A stretch of DNA of 64,000 bases from Subdoligranulum sp. CAG:314 (GTDB lineage Bacteria; Bacillota; Clostridia; Christensenellales; CAG-314). Made by a program: the position numbers and the translations under genes. How positions within the stretch are numbered: position 1 is the first letter of the stretch; each line of letters starts with the position of its first letter. The stretch lies in NCBI GenBank assembly GCA_000437915.1, contig FR900987.1:25312-89311 (forward strand). The letters run 5' to 3'. Shown here piece after piece: positions 7,951 to 36,344 of the stretch. The notes below the pieces were generated by a model. That model did no database searches, was not told the DNA's origin, and worked only from the letters and a program-made list of their open reading frames with translations.

Positions 7951-8505
7951 TCAAGGCAAAAACGCGGCATTTGCAAGAGCTTCCCCAAGACCGATAAGAG
8001 CAAGAACCACCGCAATGCTGAGGAAAAACCAGACGAACAGTCCCGCAAGCGCGGCAAGTACCAAAAGGTTCAAAAGTATTTTGAGCCATTTTTTCAGTCT
8101 GCCGCTGTGCACAACGGCGTTGCAGGCAAAAAAGCCCGCCAAAGCGAAAACCAGCCCCGCCACGCCGCCGACAACCGCCGCAGCGTTGCTTATTTCCGCC
8201 GCGTCAAGCCCGAAAGCCGCGCCGAAGCCCAAAAACAGCAGCGGTCCGAAGATGAACAGATATTCGTACCAGCTTATATGCCTGAAAACCTCCAAGGTAA
8301 CATCTCCCTCAATCAGGTTCATCCCCGTCATGTAGCTGCCTTCCACTCTGAATTGCAGATATTTTCCGTCGGCGAGAGCAACCCTGAAAAGCGCGCCGTC
8401 GACTTTTTCGGCGGGCTTTCCGTCAACCTCCACGCTTATTTTCCTGTCAAACCTGCCGCAGCTGATTTTGAACTCCCTGCCGTGCAGCATTTTTTTAGCG
8501 GTCAC
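7951..8505 (-). CDS. hypothetical membrane protein (N-terminal soluble domain + ~4 TM helices)
   Basis: GTG start at 8505 preceded by GGAGGT with 5-nt spacing. The C-terminal half is strongly hydrophobic (LFIFGPLLFLGFGAAF..., LLNLLVLAALAGLFVWFFLSIAVVLALIGL). Confidence 0.7.
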   Translation of the reverse strand: MTAKKMLHGREFKISCGRFDRKISVEVDGKPAEKVDGALFRVALADGKYLQFRVEGSYMTGMNLIEGDVTLEVFRHISWYEYLFIFGPLLFLGFGAAFGLDAAEISNAAAVVGGVAGLVFALAGFFACNAVVHSGRLKKWLKILLNLLVLAALAGLFVWFFLSIAVVLALIGLGEALANAAFLP

Positions 8506-8617: not shown

Positions 8618-8646
8618 TTGACAAAGAACAGGCTCCGTGCTAAACT
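8618..8646 (+). promoter_or_regulatory. sigma-A type promoter of the riboswitch leader
   Basis: TTGACA (8618-8623), 17-nt spacer, TAAACT (8641-8646). Confidence 0.7.
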
Positions 8647-8679
8647 GTTCAGCGTGCGGCGACGCCGCAAAAAAGCAGA

Positions 8680-8745
8680 GCATATATAGTCTCCGCGCAA
8701 AGGGCGGAGAGTTTCTACCGACGAGCCTGCCCGTCGACTATATGC
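8680..8745 (+). promoter_or_regulatory. purine riboswitch aptamer, guanine class (C at specificity position)
   Basis: Three-way junction. P1 GCATATA/TATATGC, J1-2 TAG, P2 TCTCCGC/GCGGAGA (L2 GCAAAGG). J2-3 is GTTTCTAC, identical to the xpt G-box as I recall it. P3 CGACG/CGTCG (loop AGCCTGCC), J3-1 AC. Confidence 0.8.
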
Positions 8746-8780
8746 GGTTTTTCCGCATACCGTCGGAGCGGGCATTTTTT
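8728..8780 (+). terminator. riboswitch expression-platform terminator (overlaps aptamer 3' half)
   Basis: Long imperfect hairpin. The lower stem pairs 8728-8738 with 8762-8774, and the upper stem is TATGCGG/CCGCATA (8741-8759). It is followed by TTTTTT at 8775-8780, the only hairpin+U-tract in the leader. Confidence 0.6.
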
Positions 8781-8836
8781 GCGCCCCGATTGAAAGCGGG
8801 CAAAAAGGACGAAAATAACTTTAAAGGAATTGCATT

Positions 8837-10222
8837 ATGAAAACGGATATTTTGATTGTGGGAGCAGGTCCCGCGGGGATTTTCACCGCCATAGAGCTGC
8901 TTAAACGAGGAGACAAAAGAAAAATCACCGTCGTCGAAAAGGGCGCAGCCATAGAAAACCGCGTCTGCCCCAAAAACAAAACGGGCTTGTGCGCGGGCTG
9001 CAAAAATTGCAGCATAACGACGGGCTTTTCGGGCGCGGGCGCCTTTTCGGACGGAAAACTCTCTTTGTCCGAAGACGTGGGCGGAGACCTGCCCGAGCTT
9101 GTCGGACACGACGCGGTAAAAGAGGCAATCCGATATGTGGACAAAATTTACCTCGACTTCGGCGCGGACTGCAAGGTAGAGGGAGTGGGCGACAACGACA
9201 AAATAAAGGAAATCAGGAAAAAAGCCATTCAGGCGAATTTAAAGCTGGTGGACTGCCCGATACGTCATCTCGGCACGGAAAAGGCGCAGGAGATTTATCT
9301 TGCAATCGAAAAGCATCTGTTAAAAAACGGCGTGGAGCTGTTTTTCGGCACAGACTGCGACGACCTTTTTATCGACGACGGCGTGTGCAAAGGAGCGTAT
9401 GTCCGTCAAAACGGAGAGCGGTTTCTTATCCAAGCGGGGACAACCGTCGTCGCAACGGGCAGGCGCGGCGCGGACTGGCTGTCAAAGACGTGCGAAAAAC
9501 ACGGAATCCCCCATAGACCGGGCACGGTGGATATAGGCGTGCGGGTAGAGGTGAGAAACGAGATTATGGAGGAGGTAAACAACATTCTCTACGAATCCAA
9601 GCTCATAGGTTATCCCAAGCCGTTCAAAAACAAGGTGCGCACCTTCTGCCAAAACCCGGGCGGCTTTGTCGCGCAGGAAAACTACGACGACAACCTCGCG
9701 GTGGTCAACGGCCACTCCTTCAAGGAAAAAAAGAGCGGCAACACCAATCTTGCAATCCTTTGCTCGCACAATTTTTCCGAGCCATTCAACCAACCCATAG
9801 AATACGCGAAAAAAATAGGAGAGCTGACCAATATGCTCGGCAGCGGCAAAATTTTGGTTCAGCGGTACGGCGACATAATGGACGGAAAACGCACATGGCA
9901 AAAGGAGCTTGAACGCAGCAACGTGCGCCCCACCCTCGCGGACGCGGTGGCGGGCGACATAACGGCAGCAATGCCCTATCGAGCCATGATTTCGATATTG
10001 AATTTTATTAAAGACGCGGATATCGTAGTGCCCGGCTTTGCCAGCAACGAAACGCTGCTGTATTCTCCCGAATTGAAATTTTATTCAAACAAAATCGATA
10101 TGAACGAAAGGTTGGAAACGTCGGTTAAAAACCTGCACTGCCTTGGAGACAGCTCGGGTTGGACGCGCGGACTGATGATGGCGTCCGTCATGGGCGTGCT
10201 GCTCGCCCGCGTGATTTCCTGA
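8837..10222 (+). CDS. FAD-dependent oxidoreductase/dehydrogenase of unknown substrate (COG2509-like)
   Basis: N-terminal dinucleotide fold DILIVGAGPAGIFTAIEL. Cys-rich insert CPKNKTGLCAGCKNC. 461 aa. Confidence 0.8.
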   Translation: MKTDILIVGAGPAGIFTAIELLKRGDKRKITVVEKGAAIENRVCPKNKTGLCAGCKNCSITTGFSGAGAFSDGKLSLSEDVGGDLPELVGHDAVKEAIRYVDKIYLDFGADCKVEGVGDNDKIKEIRKKAIQANLKLVDCPIRHLGTEKAQEIYLAIEKHLLKNGVELFFGTDCDDLFIDDGVCKGAYVRQNGERFLIQAGTTVVATGRRGADWLSKTCEKHGIPHRPGTVDIGVRVEVRNEIMEEVNNILYESKLIGYPKPFKNKVRTFCQNPGGFVAQENYDDNLAVVNGHSFKEKKSGNTNLAILCSHNFSEPFNQPIEYAKKIGELTNMLGSGKILVQRYGDIMDGKRTWQKELERSNVRPTLADAVAGDITAAMPYRAMISILNFIKDADIVVPGFASNETLLYSPELKFYSNKIDMNERLETSVKNLHCLGDSSGWTRGLMMASVMGVLLARVIS

Positions 10223-10235
10223 AATCTTTGAAAGA

Positions 10236-10268
10236 AAAAGCCTCCTCCCGTCGGGAAGAGGCTTTAAA
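10236..10268. terminator. bidirectional terminator between convergent genes
   Basis: AGCCTCCTCCCG / CGGGAAGAGGCT stem (11 of 12 bp) flanked by an A-run and TTTAAATTT. Confidence 0.7.
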
Positions 10269-10273
10269 TTTGC

Positions 10274-12991
10274 TCAGACTATTTCAAAAGATACGGAGCA
10301 GTCTATGTTTATGCCGTCGAAAAGATAAATTTTTATGCTCACGAAATAAGTCTTGCCCTCCTCTATCTCATAGCACCAGCTTTGCGGATTTTCGTAATCG
10401 GAGAGCACAACGTATTCTACGCCTGACACGTCGTCTGTCTGCAAATAAAATTCGTCGCCTGTCAAACCGTCGTACAACAGATTGAGACTGCCGCTTCGCG
10501 GCGCGGTAAAGCGGAAATAGACCGCCCTGCCGTTTTTAAACGTCACGTCGAGAGCTTCGCCGTTTGCGTCAAGCTCGAAGTCTCTGCCCCATGCCTTGCC
10601 GTCCTGCACCCTTTGCTCGCCGAAGCGCGCGTAGAGGGTTATTGTATCTTGCTCGAAATAAGCGGGGAACTCCACTCTTTCGCCCCAGTCGCCGTCCGCG
10701 CTTCCGTCGCTGAGATACCAGCCCTGAAAATATCCCGAACCCTCGCACGTCGGCTCGGTTTTAACCAATGAGTCGGTAAATACGGCAACGGTTTCGCCGT
10801 CTTTTTTAAGGGTATAGGCAGTGTCGGAAATCTCCGATAAGTCAATTGCCTCCGCATACGCGGGAGCGTAAAGATAAAATTCGGAGTAATACGAGGCGAT
10901 TGCATTTTGCGGCACGACGAATTCGCACAGAAGAATAGCCTCCCACGTCATACTGTCGTAGCCCGAAGCAAAAACGCTGTATGTACCGTTGTGGCTGCCG
11001 CCAAGAAACGGAGCTTTTTCCCCCTCGAAAATAACCTTTTTGAGATTGGGCGCGCCGAAAAAAGCGGATTGACCAAGCATTTCGACGTTGCCCTTAAATG
11101 TAATTTCCTTCAACGCGTGCGCGTTGTAAAACGCCGACTGTCCCACCTTTTTTACATCGCCGCCGATTACAAGCGTTTCAAGAAACGCGGTTGCTTCGCA
11201 GGAGTAACCCTCTATTGCCGCAACTCCCTCCGGCACGGTATAGGAAGTTGCCGCTTTCCGCGACGGATAGCACACAAGCGTGGTCATATCCTTTGTGTAA
11301 AGCACTCCCTCATCCGCAACATAGACCTCGTTTCCGTCTTCGACCGACAGAGAAACCAAATATTCGTTAAGGAACGCCGAAAAACCCACGTACGCGACCG
11401 AAGCGGGAATTTCAAACTCAGAAAGCGCGGTAACGTAAAAAGTGTTTGCGCCTATGTATTCGAGCGAGGGCGTCCCCCTGAACTCAACATCGCTCAGATT
11501 TTCGCAGCCGGTAAACACCCCACCCGTGATACCCATAAGCTGCACTTCTCCGAAAACGTAAGTATCGCTGCGCAAGGATACAAGAGTCGAGGGCAAAAGC
11601 ACGGATTTTAAGGAGCTGCCGAGAACGGCGCTGAACGTCCAGCCGTAAAGCTCGGTGATCCCCTCGGGCAGGGTTACGGTTTCCAGATTTTTCAGTTCTG
11701 CAAAGGCAAAGGGCGAAATATACGTCACGCCCTCAGGCACGTCGAATTTAACTGCGGATGAGTTTTGAGCGTAAACAAGCAGTCTGTCGCCGTTTTTGCC
11801 GAGATATTGCGGCCCGCTCCCCTTTTCGACAATGCAGTCGTCCTTGATTGCGTAAAAATCGTTTTCATCCGCGCCGAGCATGGACACAGACGTAAAAATA
11901 TAATCACTTCCCGAATTGGTAAAAGCCGCTTCCCCTATGTAACGCACTGTCTTGTCGATTTTCAAATTGCGTATGTTGCAGTCCTGAAACGCGCAGTCGC
12001 CTATTTTTTCGATTCCTTTCAGCACAAGATTTTCCAAAGTCGCAAAGCCCAAGGACTCGAATGTTTCTTCGTCCCACAAAGAGCCGCAGCACGAGCGGAA
12101 AAACGCTCCGTTAAGGTTGAAATCGCCTCCGTCCTCGTAGTCGTATTTTTCCGCAAATATTTTTCCCTGCTCTGAATCGACGCCTGAAATTTCTTTTACG
12201 CCCTTTTCAAAAACCAAATCGGTTATGTAAGGACATTGAAAAAAAGCGCCCCACTCTATCGCGTCTATATGCCCCTTGAAGGTTAGCCCCGTGATTGACT
12301 TGTTTCTGACAAAAGCGTATGCCTTGACCCGCGTGACGGTTTCAGGGAAAACAATGTCGCCGGACGCGGTCGAACTGCCGACGTAAACCGCGGTCTTGTC
12401 GACGTCGTAAATTATTCCGTCCTCCTGCACGTAATTGACGTTGTCGCCCTTCAAAACGTACTCAATCGCCGTCGTAGTTCCGAAAGGCATGATTCCCCAA
12501 TCGAGCAGCGTGTCGGGCAGAGTCACTTTGCTCAGATTGTAACCGGAAAAACTCGCAAGTCCAAGTTTTTTTACTCCGTTTTCCAACGTAACATTTTTGA
12601 GCATATAACAATTTCGGCAGGCTCCCGACTCTATCGTTTCGTAGCTTGACGGTATATACAAATCCGTCAGCGTCATATTTGAAGAAAAAGCGTTTTTCTT
12701 CAACCTCGTGACGGGAAGTCCGCGATACGTGTCGGGTAAAGCCGTCTTTGCGGGAACAGAACCCGTTGTTAAGCCCGCAAGGGAGTATGAAACCTTATCC
12801 TCGTTGAGGGAAAATTTGAAATAAAAATCGTCCGTCGGCACATATTTGTAAATCGCGCTCGCAGTCATATCCTCTTTTACGTTGGTTATGGATTTGTCCC
12901 AACCGATTACGTCAAAGCACCAGCTGTTTTCATTGGACTCCTGTACGAGCACGTCGTTTGGCGCCACCGAGCCGTTGTAAGGCACTTCCAC
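10274..12991 (-). CDS. BspA-type leucine-rich-repeat surface protein, body lacking an in-frame signal peptide (probable frameshifted gene)
   Basis: 905-aa ORF with many LRR units of the pattern ...AF..C..L..V.LP..v..Ig..aF. GYFQGWY (Listeria-Bacteroides repeat-like) lies near the C-terminus. The ORF opens only with GTG 12991 and has no usable RBS spacing. Confidence 0.8.
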   Translation of the reverse strand: MEVPYNGSVAPNDVLVQESNENSWCFDVIGWDKSITNVKEDMTASAIYKYVPTDDFYFKFSLNEDKVSYSLAGLTTGSVPAKTALPDTYRGLPVTRLKKNAFSSNMTLTDLYIPSSYETIESGACRNCYMLKNVTLENGVKKLGLASFSGYNLSKVTLPDTLLDWGIMPFGTTTAIEYVLKGDNVNYVQEDGIIYDVDKTAVYVGSSTASGDIVFPETVTRVKAYAFVRNKSITGLTFKGHIDAIEWGAFFQCPYITDLVFEKGVKEISGVDSEQGKIFAEKYDYEDGGDFNLNGAFFRSCCGSLWDEETFESLGFATLENLVLKGIEKIGDCAFQDCNIRNLKIDKTVRYIGEAAFTNSGSDYIFTSVSMLGADENDFYAIKDDCIVEKGSGPQYLGKNGDRLLVYAQNSSAVKFDVPEGVTYISPFAFAELKNLETVTLPEGITELYGWTFSAVLGSSLKSVLLPSTLVSLRSDTYVFGEVQLMGITGGVFTGCENLSDVEFRGTPSLEYIGANTFYVTALSEFEIPASVAYVGFSAFLNEYLVSLSVEDGNEVYVADEGVLYTKDMTTLVCYPSRKAATSYTVPEGVAAIEGYSCEATAFLETLVIGGDVKKVGQSAFYNAHALKEITFKGNVEMLGQSAFFGAPNLKKVIFEGEKAPFLGGSHNGTYSVFASGYDSMTWEAILLCEFVVPQNAIASYYSEFYLYAPAYAEAIDLSEISDTAYTLKKDGETVAVFTDSLVKTEPTCEGSGYFQGWYLSDGSADGDWGERVEFPAYFEQDTITLYARFGEQRVQDGKAWGRDFELDANGEALDVTFKNGRAVYFRFTAPRSGSLNLLYDGLTGDEFYLQTDDVSGVEYVVLSDYENPQSWCYEIEEGKTYFVSIKIYLFDGINIDCSVSFEIV

Positions 12992-14025: not shown

Positions 14026-15090
14026 TCAGTCAAGAGAGGTTTCGCAATAGGCGCACCTTTCCGTGCCGCCGTCAAAGATTGACAGCTTTTCGAGCGACGG
14101 CTCGGCATTGGTTATGCATCTTGGATTGGGGCAGCTCTTTTGCGTAAGCGTGCCGCCGAGTTTTGTTTCGCCCGAAGCACCGCCGTCCTTTAAAAGCGTA
14201 AGCAGCAGCGACATACGCGCGAATTTGCCGTAATTGACCTGCTCGAAATATTTGGCGCGGCTGTCTTTGTCAACGTCTGCGGCAATCTCGTTTACCCTCG
14301 GCAGCGGGTGCATGACTATCATATCCTCCTTTGCAGAGCCAAGTTTGTCCCTTGTGAGAACGTAGCTGTCTTTAAGACGCTCGTATTCGTCTGCGTCGGA
14401 AAATCTTTCCCGCTGAATACGCGTCATGTAAAGCACGTCAAGCTCCGACATATATTCCTGCAAATCGGCAGTTTCAACCGCCTTGCCGCCCTTTTGCTTG
14501 ATTGCTTGGAGCATATATTCGGGCAGTCTTAGCTCGCGCGGAGAAATCAGCACGAAGCTGTTTCCCTCGTATCTCAAAAGCGCGTTTAAAAGAGAATGCA
14601 CCGTGCGGCCGTATTTCAGGTCGCCTACAACCCCCACCTTCAAGCCGAAAAGCCGCCCTTTCTCCGCGTGAACGGTGACAAGGTCGGTAAGCGTCTGCGT
14701 GGGATGGCAGTGACCGCCGTCTCCCGCGTTAATTAAGGGCACCCGCGCCCAAGCGGCAGCCGCCCTCGCCGCGCCGTCCTTGGGATGACGCATGGCAATC
14801 ACGTCGGAAAAGCAGCTCACGACGCGCGCCGTGTCGCCGACCGTTTCGCCCTTTGCGGCGCTCGAACTGTCTGCGGAAGAAAATCCCAGAACTCTGCCTC
14901 CCAATTCAAGCATAGCCGCCTCGAAGCTAAGTCTCGTGCGCGTGCTCGGTTCAAAAAACAGCGTGGCAAGCGTTTTGCCGTCAAGGGCATGGGCGTAAGC
15001 CTCTCTGTTTTTCATAATGTTTTCAGCCTGATTTACAAGCGCGTCGATTTCCGAAACGCTCATATCGGTTATATCCAGCAAATGTTTCAT
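14026..15090 (-). CDS. pyrB: aspartate carbamoyltransferase catalytic chain fused to a PyrI-type zinc domain
   Basis: STRTR and HPTQ carbamoyl-phosphate/aspartate motifs and HPLPR. A ~54-aa C-terminal extension carries CPNPRCITNAEP...RCAYCE, compared with the E. coli PyrI CPNSNCISHAEP...KCKYCE recalled from memory. Confidence 0.85.
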   Translation of the reverse strand: MKHLLDITDMSVSEIDALVNQAENIMKNREAYAHALDGKTLATLFFEPSTRTRLSFEAAMLELGGRVLGFSSADSSSAAKGETVGDTARVVSCFSDVIAMRHPKDGAARAAAAWARVPLINAGDGGHCHPTQTLTDLVTVHAEKGRLFGLKVGVVGDLKYGRTVHSLLNALLRYEGNSFVLISPRELRLPEYMLQAIKQKGGKAVETADLQEYMSELDVLYMTRIQRERFSDADEYERLKDSYVLTRDKLGSAKEDMIVMHPLPRVNEIAADVDKDSRAKYFEQVNYGKFARMSLLLTLLKDGGASGETKLGGTLTQKSCPNPRCITNAEPSLEKLSIFDGGTERCAYCETSLD

Positions 15091-31997: not shown

Positions 31998-32582
31998 TCA
32001 TTGGTTTTTGCACAACGCCGCCACCACTCTCGGCAGCAGCTCGTGCTCCTTTTCCAGCACCTTGGCGGCGACGCTCTCCGCAGTGTCGTCCGCGTCCAGC
32101 TTTACGCGCGCCTGTGCAATAATTTCTCCCGTGTCGGTGCCCTCGTCAACGTAATGCACGGTGCAGCCGCTCTCTCTTTCGCCGTTTTCCACGACGGCGC
32201 GGTGCACTCTCATGCCGTAAAATCCGTCTCCGCAGTATTTGGGAATAAGCGACGGATGAATGTTGATGATTTTTTTTGCGAATCTCTCCACAAAGCGGGG
32301 CGGCAGGATATTGAGATAGCCCGCGAGCACAATCAGCTCCGTTCCGCGTCGAACAAGCTCGTCGCCGATTGCGGAAAACATTTCCTCGTCGGACGCAAAT
32401 TTCTTTTTGTCGAACACGGCGCTGTCTATCCCGTGCTTTTTCGCTCTTTCCAGCGCGCCTATGCCCTCCCTTGACGCCACCAGCAGCACGATTTTGCCGT
32501 CAATAAGCCCGCTTTCCACTCCGTCCACGACGCTTTGAAAATCGCTGCCGCCTCCCGACGCGAATACGGCTATGTTTTTCAT
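31998..32582 (-). CDS. purN: phosphoribosylglycinamide formyltransferase
   Basis: 194 aa. VFASGGGSDFQ and NIHPSLIP motifs. ATGA overlap with the purM stop. Confidence 0.9.
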   Translation of the reverse strand: MKNIAVFASGGGSDFQSVVDGVESGLIDGKIVLLVASREGIGALERAKKHGIDSAVFDKKKFASDEEMFSAIGDELVRRGTELIVLAGYLNILPPRFVERFAKKIINIHPSLIPKYCGDGFYGMRVHRAVVENGERESGCTVHYVDEGTDTGEIIAQARVKLDADDTAESVAAKVLEKEHELLPRVVAALCKNQ

Positions 32583-33595
32583 AGAATTACGCCCCGACCT
32601 CTGACGACTTCGCCAAGACGGACAGGCTCCTCGTTGAGAGAACGCAAGGTTTCAAGCGCCTTTTCCTCCTCCGCACCGTCCAAGCACAGCACCATGCCTA
32701 TACCCATATTGAAGGTGTTGTACATTTTTTCGTCCGAGATGCCCGAGCGTCTTTGAAGCGCCTTAAACAGCGCGGGTATTTCATAAGACGACCTGTCGAT
32801 TTTTGCGGCAAGCCCTTCGGGCAAAATTCTCGGTATGTTTTCGACAAAGCCGCCGCCCGTGATATGGGCAATGCCCTTAATCGGATGCTTTTCAATCAGA
32901 GAAAGTATCGTTTTGACATATATCCTCGTAGGTCTCAAAAGCGCCTGAGCGGGGGACTCTCCAAGCTCCGCGTCGAACCTTTCCAAATCCTCTTTTACGG
33001 GAGGGAAAAGCTTTCTCACAAGAGAATAGCCGTTGCTGTGCACTCCGCTGGATTTCAAACCCACAAGTCTGTCTCCCTCTTTTATCCCGCTGCCGTTGAT
33101 GATTTTGTTTTTCTTGGCGACGCCCACCGCGAACCCCGCCATGTCGTAGTCGTCGTCGGCGTAAAAGCCCGGCATTTCGGCTGTCTCTCCGCCGATAAGA
33201 GCGCAGCCCGCCTGCCTGCACCCCTCGCTTACTCCCTTGACAATCATGGCCACCTTTTGCGGCACGAGCCTTGACAGCGCAATGTAGTCGAGAAAAATCA
33301 GCGGCTTTGCTCCCTGACACACAATGTCGTTCACGCACATGGCAACGCAGTCTATGCCCACCGTATCGTGCCTGTCCAGCACAAAGGCGTATTTGAGCTT
33401 TGTTCCCACGCCGTCGGTGCCCGCCACCAGAACGTCTCCGTCCGGCTTGTCGTCAAGAGCGTAAAAACCGCCGAAGGAGCCCAAATCGCCCAGCACGCCG
33501 TCGGTGTAGGTTTCCTTGACGTATTTCTTCATGAGTCTGACCGCTTCGTAGCCTCTTTCCACGTCTACGCCCGCGCTTTTGTAATCAATCGCCAT
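32579..33595 (-). CDS. purM: phosphoribosylformylglycinamidine cyclo-ligase (AIR synthase)
   Basis: Start moved to ATG 33595 (MAIDYKSAGVD) behind GGAG with 6-nt spacing. The ORF track opens two codons earlier at TTG. Confidence 0.9.
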   Translation of the reverse strand: MAIDYKSAGVDVERGYEAVRLMKKYVKETYTDGVLGDLGSFGGFYALDDKPDGDVLVAGTDGVGTKLKYAFVLDRHDTVGIDCVAMCVNDIVCQGAKPLIFLDYIALSRLVPQKVAMIVKGVSEGCRQAGCALIGGETAEMPGFYADDDYDMAGFAVGVAKKNKIINGSGIKEGDRLVGLKSSGVHSNGYSLVRKLFPPVKEDLERFDAELGESPAQALLRPTRIYVKTILSLIEKHPIKGIAHITGGGFVENIPRILPEGLAAKIDRSSYEIPALFKALQRRSGISDEKMYNTFNMGIGMVLCLDGAEEEKALETLRSLNEEPVRLGEVVRGRGVIL

Positions 33596-33619
33596 AATCA
33601 ACTCCTGTCTTTTTTCCGT

Positions 33620-35038
33620 TTATTCAAAAATAAATTTTCCCGTCTCGTCGTCCGTCACGCTGTCGGGATAATTCCCGTCGAAGCACGCCGCGCAGAAACC
33701 GCCGCCTCCGCAGGCTGTTTTAAGACATTCGAGCGGAATATAGTTGAGACTGTCCGCGCCGATTTTTTTGCATATGTCGTCCTTTGTGATTTTGCCGCCT
33801 ACAAGCTCCTCTCTTGTCTGCATATCCACTCCGAAATAGCACGGATGACCGACAATGGGAGAACCGACAAGCATATGAATTTCCTTTGCGCCGTTTTTGC
33901 GCAGCAGGCTGATTATTTTTTTGCTTGTTGTGCCGCGCACTATCGAGTCGTCGATGAGTATAATTCTTTTGCCCTCTATGTTGCTGCGGAACGCGTTGAG
34001 CTTCAAGCTGACGGAGTTTTCCCTTACGCTCTGCGAGGGCTGAATAAAGGTTCTGCCTACATAGCGGTTTTTGCTTATTGCGTCCACCATGGGTATGCCG
34101 CTCACGTCCGAATAACCCTTTGCGCACACCAGCGCGCTGTCCGGCACTCCCGCCACAAGGTCCGCGTCGATTTTGAAAAGCTCCGCAAGCATTCTGCCGC
34201 ACTTGTAGCGCGCTTCGTATACGGACACGCCGTTTAAAACCGAGTCGCTCCTGCTGATGTACACGTATTCGAAAATACAAAACTTCGGCTCGATGTTTTT
34301 TAAAAACCTGCTCTGCATTTCAAGGTTTTCGTCGATTACCAAAACCTCTCCGGGCTTGACGTCCCGCACAATCTCCGCGCCGATTGCGTCCAGAGCGCAG
34401 GACTCGCTCGCCGCCACAATCTCGCCCTCGGGCGTTTTGCCTATAATCAGCGGTTTGAGACCGTGCCTGTCGCGCACGGCTACAAGCTTGCCCTCCGCCA
34501 TGACAAGCAGCGAAAACGCGCCGAGAAACTCCTCGCAGGCGGCGACTATTCCGCCCACAAGGTCGTCCTTGATGTGGTAGTTTATTCTCGCGGCAATCAC
34601 CTCGCTGTCTATCGAGCTTTGAAAAATATGCCCCTTGTCCAGCATCTGCGCCTTGATTTGATTGGCGTTTACCACGTTTCCGTTGTGGGCTACCGCCATT
34701 CTGCCCTTTTTTCCGTAAAAAACCACCGGCTGAGCGTTGACTACGTTGCTCGAGCCTGTGGTGGAATATCTCACGTGACCGACAGCTACGGTGGTAGGCG
34801 GCAAAAGCTCAAGCTCCGCCTCCTTGAACACGTCGTTGACAAGCCCCATGTTTTTGTAATAAACCGCCTTGTCTTTTTGGTAGGAAACGGCGATTCCCGC
34901 GCTTTCCTGCCCTCTGTGCTGCAACGCGAAAAGTCCGAAATACACCTTTCGCGCAAGCTCCGAGCTGTCGCGGGAGATTATTCCGAAAATGCCGCAAGCT
35001 TCCTTTATGTTTCTTTCAAGCAGAATTTTTTCCGCCAT
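33620..35038 (-). CDS. purF: amidophosphoribosyltransferase
   Basis: Ntn Cys after a propeptide (..EACGIFGI). PRPP loop ILIDDSIVRGTT. C-terminal Fe-S cysteines. Confidence 0.93.
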   Translation of the reverse strand: MAEKILLERNIKEACGIFGIISRDSSELARKVYFGLFALQHRGQESAGIAVSYQKDKAVYYKNMGLVNDVFKEAELELLPPTTVAVGHVRYSTTGSSNVVNAQPVVFYGKKGRMAVAHNGNVVNANQIKAQMLDKGHIFQSSIDSEVIAARINYHIKDDLVGGIVAACEEFLGAFSLLVMAEGKLVAVRDRHGLKPLIIGKTPEGEIVAASESCALDAIGAEIVRDVKPGEVLVIDENLEMQSRFLKNIEPKFCIFEYVYISRSDSVLNGVSVYEARYKCGRMLAELFKIDADLVAGVPDSALVCAKGYSDVSGIPMVDAISKNRYVGRTFIQPSQSVRENSVSLKLNAFRSNIEGKRIILIDDSIVRGTTSKKIISLLRKNGAKEIHMLVGSPIVGHPCYFGVDMQTREELVGGKITKDDICKKIGADSLNYIPLECLKTACGGGGFCAACFDGNYPDSVTDDETGKFIFE

Positions 35039-35751
35039 TACGCCTTTTCTCCCATAAGTCTCGCAAGCACCTCTCTGTACGCCTCCTCCACTTTTCCCAA
35101 ATCGCGTCTGAAACGGTCCTTGTCAAGCTTTTCGTGCGTAACGGTGTCCCAGAAACGGCAGGTGTCGGGTGAAATTTCGTCGGCAAGCAGAATTTTGCCG
35201 TGAAAACGACCGAATTCGATTTTAAAATCGACGAGGTCGATGTTTATGTCTTTGAAATAAGCGCGCATAAAATCGTTGATTTTAAAGGCTTTTTCCTTGA
35301 TTTCGTCCAGCTCCCGTTTTTCGGCAAGCCCCAGTGCGAATATGTGATAATCGTTTACCAAAGGGTCTCCCAGCGCGTCGTCCTTGTAGCAAAATTCCAA
35401 AACGGCGCTTTTCAACGGCGTGCCCTCTTTCAGTCCGAGCCTTTTGCTCAGACTGCCCGCCGCTATGTTTCTCACTATGACCTCCAACGGCACGATTTCA
35501 ACCTTTTTTACCAGTGCGTCCGTGTCGGAAAGTTCCCTAATCAAATGAGTTTCGATGCCGTGCTTTTCAAGCTGCGCGAACATGAAATTGGAGCATTTGT
35601 TGTTTACCGTGCCCTTGCCGGCTATTTGCCCCTTTTTCTGCCCGTTGAACGCGGTCGCGTCGTCCTTGTAGCTGACTATAACCGCGTCCGCATCGTCCGT
35701 TTTGAATACCTTTTTGGCTTTGCCCTCGTACATCAATTCTCTTTTTTCCAT
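35038..35751 (-). CDS. purC: phosphoribosylaminoimidazole-succinocarboxamide synthase
   Basis: 237 aa. The N-terminal [11 protein letters not shown] is typical of PurC. Confidence 0.92.
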
Positions 35752-35787
35752 TTTTTTAAGACTCCTTTTAGTTCGTCGATAATTCTT

Positions 35788-36273
35788 TCAGTCCTTGCCC
35801 TGCGGCAAAACCGTTTCAAGCACGTCCAAGCGCATCCTTTCCCTGTGGGCGACAAGCCGTTTTGCAAGAGCCGCGTCGGACAACGCAAGCATCTGCGCCG
35901 CCAGAATACCCGCATTCTGCGCGCCGTTTATCGCCACGGTTGCCACGGGCACGCCGTTCGGCATCTGAACGACGGACAGCAGGCTGTCCAATCCGTCCAA
36001 CGTGGAGCTTTTGACAGGCAGACCGATGACGGGCAGCACGGTGTGTGCGGCAATAAATCCCGCAAGATGAGCCGCCTTTCCCGCGGCAGCGACAATCACC
36101 TTGACTCCGCTCTCCGCCGCGTTTTTGGCAAACTCCGCCACCTCGTCGGGAGTGCGGTGGGCGCTCATGACCTTCATCTCCGCGTCCACGCCCAGCTTCC
36201 TTAAAATTTCATAAGCGGGAAGCACCGTTTCGTAATCGCTTTTGCTTCCCATGACAATAGTGACAACCGCCAT
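35788..36273 (-). CDS. purE: AIR carboxylase / N5-CAIR mutase
   Basis: Start moved to ATG 36273 (MAVVTIVMGSKSDY). SAHRTP motif. No purK in the window. Confidence 0.9.
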   Translation of the reverse strand: MAVVTIVMGSKSDYETVLPAYEILRKLGVDAEMKVMSAHRTPDEVAEFAKNAAESGVKVIVAAAGKAAHLAGFIAAHTVLPVIGLPVKSSTLDGLDSLLSVVQMPNGVPVATVAINGAQNAGILAAQMLALSDAALAKRLVAHRERMRLDVLETVLPQGKD

Positions 36274-36303
36274 AGATTCCTTTGTTACCTCCTGAAATAA
36301 ATC

Positions 36304-36344
36304 AAAAAAGGCAATTTCGCATGACAAAGCAAGCAGAAATTGCC
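36304..36344 (-). terminator. ZTP-riboswitch terminator
   Basis: Minus strand GGCAATTTC (36344-36336) / GAAATTGCC (36318-36310), then TTTTTT (36309-36304). The 5' arm overlaps the aptamer CTGGGCA. Confidence 0.8.

Follow-up and report, generated by a model that had tools for sequence, protein, structure and literature searches.

The leader of an uncharacterized flavin adenine dinucleotide (FAD) protein gene in Subdoligranulum sp. CAG:314 (Clostridia; Christensenellales) contains an aptamer of the purine riboswitch family with a guanine-I-type ligand pocket, and this element probably works as a transcriptional ON switch. The leader lies at positions 8618 to 8836 of the 64,000-nucleotide (nt) stretch of DNA that was analyzed (assembly GCA_000437915.1, contig FR900987.1, 25,312 to 89,311, forward strand), which is called the window here and whose own numbering is used throughout. 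In textbooks, guanine-I riboswitches are OFF switches of the genes by which purines are made, salvaged, and taken up. A canonical guanine pocket wired in the ON direction to a single, highly conserved family of uncharacterized flavoproteins extends the known logic of this class. An earlier reading made from the letters of the window (the sequence-only reading) had proposed a guanine-type aptamer with an ON terminator like that of the pbuE adenine riboswitch, and its statements about the sequence itself all proved correct.

The whole window was scanned against Rfam (4227 families) at gathering thresholds, which returned two riboswitches, a purine riboswitch (RF00167) in the leader and a ZMP/ZTP riboswitch (RF01750) elsewhere. 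The purine match is significant. It covers 8662 to 8760 on the forward strand and scores 50.7 bits, above the gathering score of 37, with an E of 1.2e-5 for the whole window and 4227 families, and a covariance model of our own, described below, scores the window aptamer at 64.9 bits. The parts of the aptamer, the terminator, and the gene are as follows.

8680-8745, +, purine (guanine-I-type) aptamer, based on RF00167, our own covariance model, covariation in 35 distinct relatives, and the L2/L3 pairs.
8680-8686 and 8739-8745, +, helix P1, GCAUAUA with UAUAUGC, read against the model.
8687-8689, +, junction J1-2, UAG, starting with U.
8690-8696 and 8704-8710, +, helix P2, UCUCCGC with GCGGAGA, read against the model.
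8697-8703, +, loop L2, GCAAAGG, with a terminal GG.
8711-8718, +, junction J2-3, GUUUCUAC, the canonical 8 nt.
8719-8725 and 8730-8736, +, helix P3, CGACGAG with CCCGUCG, with one A-C mismatch.
8726-8729, +, loop L3, CCUG, 4 nt, containing CC.
8737-8738, +, junction J3-1, AC, the canonical 2 nt, in which C8738 is the specificity nucleotide C74.
8725-8773, +, intrinsic terminator, a two-tier hairpin in the minimum-free-energy fold of the leader, followed by A8774 and U6 at 8775-8780.
8837-10222, +, gene for a FAD-dependent protein of 461 amino acids, with a Rossmann FAD domain and PF21688 (FAD-depend_C).

The junctions and loops are those that the sequence-only reading had given (a U at the start of J1-2, GUUUCUAC as J2-3, AC as J3-1, GG in L2, and CC in L3). 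Its assignment of the pocket to the guanine (C74) type also stands, as all of the ligand-contacting positions in the window (U22, U47, U51, and C74) are of the guanine-I type and are accompanied by the 8-nt J2-3 and 2-nt J3-1.

The sole hairpin of the leader that abuts a U tract is built from strands of the aptamer. The sequence-only reading had drawn this hairpin at 8728 to 8780 with the U6 tract included, and the fold confirms its composition with the stem at 8725 to 8773. In the lower stem, L3 and the 3′ arm of P3 are paired with 8762-8773, and in the upper stem UAUGCGG (8741-8747), the P1 3′ strand, is paired with CCGCAUA (8753-8759) around a UUUUU loop. From the aptamer, the terminator takes over the closing G of P3, L3, the 3′ arm of P3, J3-1, and the 3′ strand of P1, and the two structures overlap from 8725 to 8747. 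Because the hairpin consists of the P3, L3, J3-1, and P1 3′ strands, aptamer and terminator are mutually exclusive, and a pbuE-like ON switch is therefore predicted. Folding of the leader with and without the aptamer constraint lends support to this logic, which the sequence-only reading had also put forward. The unconstrained fold is the terminator and not the aptamer (-51.3 kcal/mol versus -43.0 kcal/mol with the aptamer pairs enforced), and once the aptamer is enforced the remaining tail folds only a -6.4 kcal/mol hairpin. When the leader was folded as a series of lengths, the aptamer was the best fold up to 8755, P1 was lost at 8760, and the full terminator appeared at 8774.

These folds suggest an order of events. 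The three-way-junction aptamer (8680-8745) would be finished before the competitor strands are transcribed. With guanine, or one of its close relatives hypoxanthine and xanthine, bound, P1 and P3 would be locked, the strands at 8753-8773 could not invade, and no strong hairpin would form ahead of U6, leaving RNA polymerase to continue into the flavoprotein gene. With no ligand, CCGCAUA (8753-8759) would take the P1 3′ strand first, 8762-8773 would next take the P3 3′ arm and L3, and the resulting long terminator would stop transcription at 8775-8780. By analogy with pbuE, the switch is probably under kinetic control, as the apo aptamer fold falls short of the terminator fold by about 8 kcal/mol in stability. 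The pbuE terminator, too, surpasses its apo aptamer in stability, and kinetic control follows from this. As a separate observation on the region past U6 (8781-8812), the terminator 3′-arm sequence AGCGGGCA (8767-8774) occurs there again, with the complementary GCCCCG lying between both copies; in read-through transcripts, GCCCCG could sequester the terminator arm.

The arrangement of aptamer and gene recurs in dozens of gut Clostridia. Loci of flavoprotein homologues were fetched from 80 species-representative genomes, and a covariance model was built from the first nine aptamers seen. The model has exactly one match in each of nine of the 80 loci and in the window, always directly 5′ of the FAD gene, and no further matches elsewhere in the 600 kb of species-representative loci. 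A pattern scan of metagenomes that combined the aptamer core with the GAGPAG motif encoded by the gene produced 48 contigs, and the covariance model confirmed all 48. The 59 aptamers represent 35 distinct sequences, with about 41 distinct leaders, upstream of FAD-protein orthologues in Clostridia. In an alignment of the 35 that was fitted to the model, a procedure that somewhat favors structure, 94.6% of cells in the three-way junction are paired with compensatory changes in 15 of 19 pairs. None of 500 shuffles reached the observed covariation score, and slid controls were 27-40% paired. Covariation is strong in P1, P2, P3, and the L2-L3 kissing pairs.

The core of the pocket does not vary within the group. 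U22, A23, G46, U47, U49, C50, U51, A52, C53, A73, and C74 are invariant, and J2-3 reads GU(U/C/G)UCUAC, with U or C, and in one case G, at position 48. C74 is found in 35 of 35 aptamers, forced by the search pattern in the 48 metagenome loci and unforced in the 10 genome loci. At the level of sequence, the loop-loop contact that the sequence-only reading considered possible is also maintained. As parsed, the GG of L2 and CC of L3 (G37-C61 and G38-C60) are present in 28 of the 35 aptamers, or in 31 if three rows from the group of the window are read with a 7-base-pair P3, and double compensation of the kissing pairs is seen in two leaders (GC/GC in L072 and AG/CU in L044). The length of L3 is 4-7 nt in the group and mostly 5-6 nt. 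Thirteen of 15 relatives tested pass the RF00167 gathering score (37.6-62.9 bits), with L034 and L044 falling under it, and scores in relatives are modest because L3 is shorter than the 7-nt consensus. Two of the aptamers (L077 2831-2937 and L123 2536-2623) have a hairpin inserted in L2, which grows to 22 and 41 nt from 7 nt and keeps its terminal GG; the same two aptamers have A-U in place of the conserved C54-G72 pair.

The ON design is conserved along with the aptamer. In 36 of 41 distinct leaders, the 5′ arm of the terminator begins in J2-3, the P3 5′ arm, or L3 and the hairpin encloses J3-1 and the P1 3′ strand, and the terminator stem abuts the first U tract (U4-7) in 36 of 41 as well. 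P3 differs by lineage, with CAACUG, CGGCUG, CGGCCG, AAACUG, and CGACGA among its sequences, and the 3′ arm of the terminator changes along with it. A terminator 3′ arm pairs with the P3 of its own leader at a mean of -12.5 kcal/mol and with the P3 of other leaders at -8.8 kcal/mol, a separation reached in 0 of 10000 permutations. Aptamer membership, conservation, covariation, mutual exclusivity, and the conserved design were all computed directly.

In terms of known systems, the closest design is that of the pbuE (ydhL) adenine riboswitch of Bacillus subtilis, reportedly described by Mandal and Breaker in 2004. Both elements have the same three-way-junction aptamer of the RF00167 family and the same ON design, in which the 3′ arm of P3, J3-1, and the 3′ strand of P1 supply the terminator, and in the window, as in pbuE, the bound ligand would disrupt it. 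The pbuE element has U74, binds adenine, has a 7-nt L3, and controls a purine efflux pump, whereas the window element has C74 and a 4-nt L3 and controls an uncharacterized flavoprotein. In contrast, the pocket is identical to that of guanine-I riboswitches (B. subtilis xpt-pbuX, pbuG, purE, and nupG; Clostridioides difficile guaA and xpt), with J2-3 as GUUUCUAC, J3-1 as AC, and the same L2 GG and L3 CC kissing pairs. The differences from guanine-I are G24, the short L3, the predicted ON polarity in place of the OFF control by separate antiterminator and terminator that has been described, and a gene outside the guanine-I regulon of purine synthesis, salvage, and transport. Guanine-II has the same scaffold, senses guanine, and is an ON switch as predicted for the window, but unlike the window it has insertions in J2-3 and J3-1 and is associated with phosphoribosyltransferase genes in Paenibacillus (PMC9295807). 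The 8-oxoguanine (8-oxoG), xanthine-II, and 2′-deoxyguanosine-III (2′-dG-III) classes are also ON switches in which the terminator is blocked once P1 and P3 are stabilized, as proposed for the window. Their target genes serve to dispose of a purine derivative, and their pocket changes are absent from the window.

The statement of the sequence-only reading that ON logic is uncommon for C-type aptamers agrees with the literature. Barrick and Breaker named glycine, adenine, and lysine switches, and not guanine switches, as those with terminators of ON logic (2007, PMC2258182), Mulhbacher described guanine riboswitches as modulating transcription negatively (2007, PMC2018637), and Hamal Dhakal contrasted guanine-I (OFF) with guanine-II (ON) (2022, PMC9295807). 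Guanine riboswitches are likewise OFF or negative regulators in C. difficile (PMC11477304) and Bacillus anthracis (PMC5393184). No described guanine-I ON switch was found in the literature that we consulted, where the ON variants are only guanine-II, 8-oxoG, xanthine-II, and 2′-dG-III. Likewise, no link between COG2509, K07137, or FAD-dependent genes and riboswitches of the purine or guanine type was found, within a partial coverage of the literature that is no proof of novelty. Automated annotation will already label such sites as purine riboswitches. A guanine-I pocket that is joined to an ON platform, has a compact L3, and stands in a new and conserved association with one gene is mechanistically unsurprising and is a clean, conserved exception to the OFF rule. 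Such natural guanine-responsive ON platforms with a compact L3 are possibly useful to riboswitch engineers.

Judging from the pocket positions, guanine is the most likely ligand. Hypoxanthine and xanthine are also possible, because guanine-I discriminates against both only about 10-fold (PMC9295807). The sequence-only reading had additionally allowed for a variant ligand of the xanthine, 2′-dG, or 8-oxoG class, and this part of it fared poorly, as the changes that define those classes are absent. Xanthine-II requires U51G together with insertions in J2-3 and J3-1, while the window has U51, an 8-nt J2-3, and AC as J3-1; guanine-II requires one extra nucleotide in J2-3 and an insertion in J3-1, neither of which is present; and in 2′-dG-III all three junctions are altered (PMC9295807) and a nucleoside hydrolase is associated, while the junctions of the window are canonical. 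The 8-oxoG class lacks U47 (PMC10556655), which leaves a 7-nt J2-3, and comes with an 8-oxoG deaminase gene, while the window has U47 and a flavoprotein gene. The adenine class requires U74, and the window has C8738. In 2′-dG-I and -II, the hallmark is U51C, and the window has U51.

Several observations weigh against a guanine-responsive ON switch. The L3 of the window has 4 nt (4-7 nt in the group) where the Rfam consensus has 7, and the tertiary dock may be weaker or different as a result. Position 24 is G in the window (G8689), outside the guanine-I consensus of W (A or U) given by Mulhbacher (2007, PMC2018637); this is a consensus feature without a ligand contact, and of the 35 aptamers 23 have A there, 10 have G, and 2 have U. 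An A24G change in B. subtilis xpt abolished binding of 2-aminopurine, an effect that is context-dependent, with natural contexts tolerating variation (PMC2018637). Caution on the ligand is in order because G24 lies outside the 2007 consensus and L3 is unusually short. The invariance at TCTAC and ACTAT, both fixed in the metagenome pattern, is partly by construction and rests on the ten genome-derived loci. Five of the 41 leaders have no clear P3-invading terminator in the minimum-free-energy fold: L086 has a stand-alone hairpin terminator, in L095 the hairpin overlaps only outer P1, and in L090, L092, and L109 two folds are nearly isoenergetic. The distribution is patchy, with the riboswitch in 11% of species representatives, and two loci whose proteins are 89% identical to that of the window (L083 and L084) are without it. 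The flavoprotein itself has no characterized relative or known purine function. Finally, the ligand, the polarity, and the termination efficiency are predictions from computation.

The first two of these observations also speak for a different ligand. The same ON architecture could respond not to guanine, hypoxanthine, or xanthine but to a nucleoside, an oxidized or reduced purine, a pterin, a 7-deazapurine, or the substrate of the enzyme, which would make the group a cryptic specificity variant. Besides G24 in 10 of 35 aptamers and the shortened L3, the gene association is atypical for guanine-I, and an atypical gene association was the criterion that revealed xanthine-II, guanine-II, 2′-dG-III, and 8-oxoG (PMC9295807, PMC10556655). 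The same gene also stands behind a tetrahydrofolate (THF) riboswitch and folT (L041), or behind folK, in other genomes, which hints at a pterin or GTP-derived substrate. We nevertheless consider a shifted ligand rather unlikely, as U22, U47, U51, C74, and the supporting tiers are invariant, J2-3 and J3-1 keep their canonical 8 and 2 nt, and the known specificity variants are all altered in these junctions. If the ligand does turn out to be something other than guanine, then a specificity variant hidden behind an unchanged pocket would be the more surprising result.

A second possibility accepts the aptamer and questions the switch, with the leader serving as a leaky constitutive attenuator, as an OFF switch through the residual hairpin at 8753-8772, or in translational control. 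The -6.4 kcal/mol hairpin does still precede U6 when the aptamer is enforced, and the stand-alone terminator of L086 and the near-isoenergetic alternatives of L090, L092, and L109 would fit such regulation. Yet the residual hairpin has about five pairs, an interrupted interior, and a 2-nt offset from the U tract, and so would make a poor terminator, while the strong hairpin requires aptamer strands in 36 of 41 leaders with a 3′ arm that covaries with P3. The ribosome-binding site, for its part, lies more than 40 nt past the terminator and is unpaired with aptamer strands. Regulation other than ligand-induced readthrough is accordingly judged improbable, more so than a shifted ligand. Strongly disfavored, to the point of being hardly credible, is a decaying aptamer remnant or chance match with the hairpin as the terminator of an upstream unit: despite the patchy distribution, modest Rfam scores in some relatives (37-40 bits), and two leaders below the gathering score (L034 and L044), the 35 distinct sequences carry compensatory changes in each of the three helices and in the kissing loops, a dedicated promoter lies immediately upstream, and no co-directional gene ends there, the neighbor at 7951-8505 being divergent.

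The promoter, a consensus promoter in the sequence-only reading, matches the consensus at 10 of 12 positions and has the extended -10 TG. The leader has its own promoter because the nearest upstream gene (7951-8505) is divergent. The further elements of the leader are as follows.

8618-8646, +, sigma-70-type promoter, -35 TTGACA at 8618-8623, 17-nt spacer, -10 TAAACT at 8641-8646, extended -10 TG at 8638-8639.
8655-8669, +, 5′-terminal hairpin UGCGGC-GAC-GCCGCA at the predicted transcript start, present in every fold.
8823-8829, +, ribosome-binding site AAAGGAA, 7 nt ahead of the ATG, read from the sequence.

The transcript would start near 8653, a few bases past the -10 element. That the 5′-terminal hairpin (8655-8669) is a 5′ stabilizer is only a guess.

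The riboswitch-bearing genes are scattered over the protein tree and form no single clade. A Christensenellales metagenome-assembled genome (L081) with a protein 86% identical to that of the window and the same pyrB-pyrE-pyrF synteny has the riboswitch. The tree is compatible with an ancient origin and repeated loss or with spread, and cannot separate the two.

The regulated gene (8837-10222) appears monocistronic and converges on a gene for a BspA-type leucine-rich repeat (LRR) protein. Between its end at 10222 and this LRR gene (905 amino acids, 10274-12991, reverse strand) is a 13-base-pair hairpin flanked by T-runs (10237-10265), which is probably a bidirectional terminator. The sequence-only reading had called the product a COG2509-like FAD-dependent oxidoreductase with a Cys-rich insert, a description that the domain matches and a Cys motif uphold. 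PF21688 scores 45.9 bits, for a cutoff of 27, and the N-terminus is matched by both PF00890 and PF07992; beside PF21688, Pfam and NCBIfam gave only generic FAD matches. One homologue carries the name "Uncharacterized FAD-dependent dehydrogenases" from JGI. The motif is C44-x7-C52-x2-C55-x2-C58, with C44, C52, C55, and C58 invariant in 21 homologues, and in an alignment of 75 sequences C-P-x6-C-x2-C-x2-C is the majority state down to 32% identity. C271 is invariant in the same 75 sequences. From this motif an Fe-S or metal site is plausible. Searches of the PDB by sequence and profile found only one real homologue, 3NLC (VP0956), which is itself uncharacterized and from which the Cys motif is absent. 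An AlphaFold2 model from the 21-sequence alignment was poor, with a mean predicted local distance difference test score (pLDDT) of 61. The protein family is large, with about 4400 clusters at 50% identity for E ≤0.001 and 686 for ≤1e-30, and homologues of 71-78% identity (the best 80 genome matches) are found in Clostridia of the Christensenellales, Oscillospiraceae, Acutalibacteraceae, and Anaerovoracaceae. For this widespread enzyme of human- and animal-gut Clostridia, the switch gives a first functional clue and a testable handle, at a time of interest in how gut bacteria turn over purines.

No conserved operon partner of the flavoprotein gene was found across the fetched loci, where the gene is usually monocistronic. 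Among loci without the riboswitch, purA, for adenylosuccinate synthetase, lies downstream in five and is co-directional in four (15-18 nt gap; L023, L028, L038, and L060), and in three closely related genomes (L019, L020, and L022) folK, for 6-hydroxymethyl-7,8-dihydropterin pyrophosphokinase (HPPK), lies 17 nt upstream of the flavoprotein gene and in the same direction. In one clostridial locus (L041, 2285-4389), a THF riboswitch (RF01831, 79.2 bits) is followed by folT (TIGR04518, 112.6 bits) and, after 13 nt, by the FAD gene. This is an apparent THF-controlled folT-FAD operon, with folT as a folate-family S-component of the energy-coupling factor (ECF) type. This THF riboswitch was the only other cis-regulator found in the 73 aptamer-less loci (71 genome-derived plus L083 and L084), the remaining matches being unrelated RNAs. 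A GPH transporter and TspO flank the flavoprotein gene in six to eight loci without the riboswitch, and an ATP-binding cassette (ABC) permease is ahead of it in seven. Designation of this permease as a nucleoside transporter was dropped, since its best NCBIfam match is far under the cutoff and its substrate is not assignable.

Taken with the guanine-type switch, these neighbors point loosely to purine or GTP-derived (pterin/folate) metabolism, as a lead rather than a finding. The purine-responsive redox or detoxification role that the sequence-only reading attached to the flavoprotein is something that we can only infer. A fuller proposal is offered tentatively, and we think it somewhat doubtful as a whole: in anaerobic Clostridia of the gut, the flavoprotein could be an unrecognized enzyme that acts on purines or in GTP-derived (pterin/folate) metabolism and is induced by a build-up of guanine or hypoxanthine. 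It might, for example, reduce or oxidize the purine ring, or carry out a detoxifying or salvage step. Its aptamers, with their short L3 and variable position 24, would then form a distinct guanine-I ON subclass that possibly has a shifted ligand preference.

A few further observations concern the surroundings. Downstream of the flavoprotein gene in L020 (4483-5399) and L022 (4765-4840), the Gut-1 RNA motif (RF01706) is repeated several times in tandem beside tRNA genes. The second riboswitch of the window, of the ZMP/ZTP family (RF01750, 36335-36419, reverse strand, 55.3 bits), immediately precedes purE (AIRC domain), purC, purF, and purM (32579-36327, reverse strand). On these assignments, the same genome has a de novo purine operon under apparent ZTP control and the flavoprotein gene under apparent guanine-class control. 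At 14026-15090 (reverse strand), the window encodes an aspartate carbamoyltransferase (OTCace_N and OTCace) with a C-terminal PyrI_C metal-binding domain at residues 319-353, so that the catalytic chain and the zinc domain known from the regulatory chain form one protein. This gene is followed by pyrE and pyrF, a synteny that is also found in L081.

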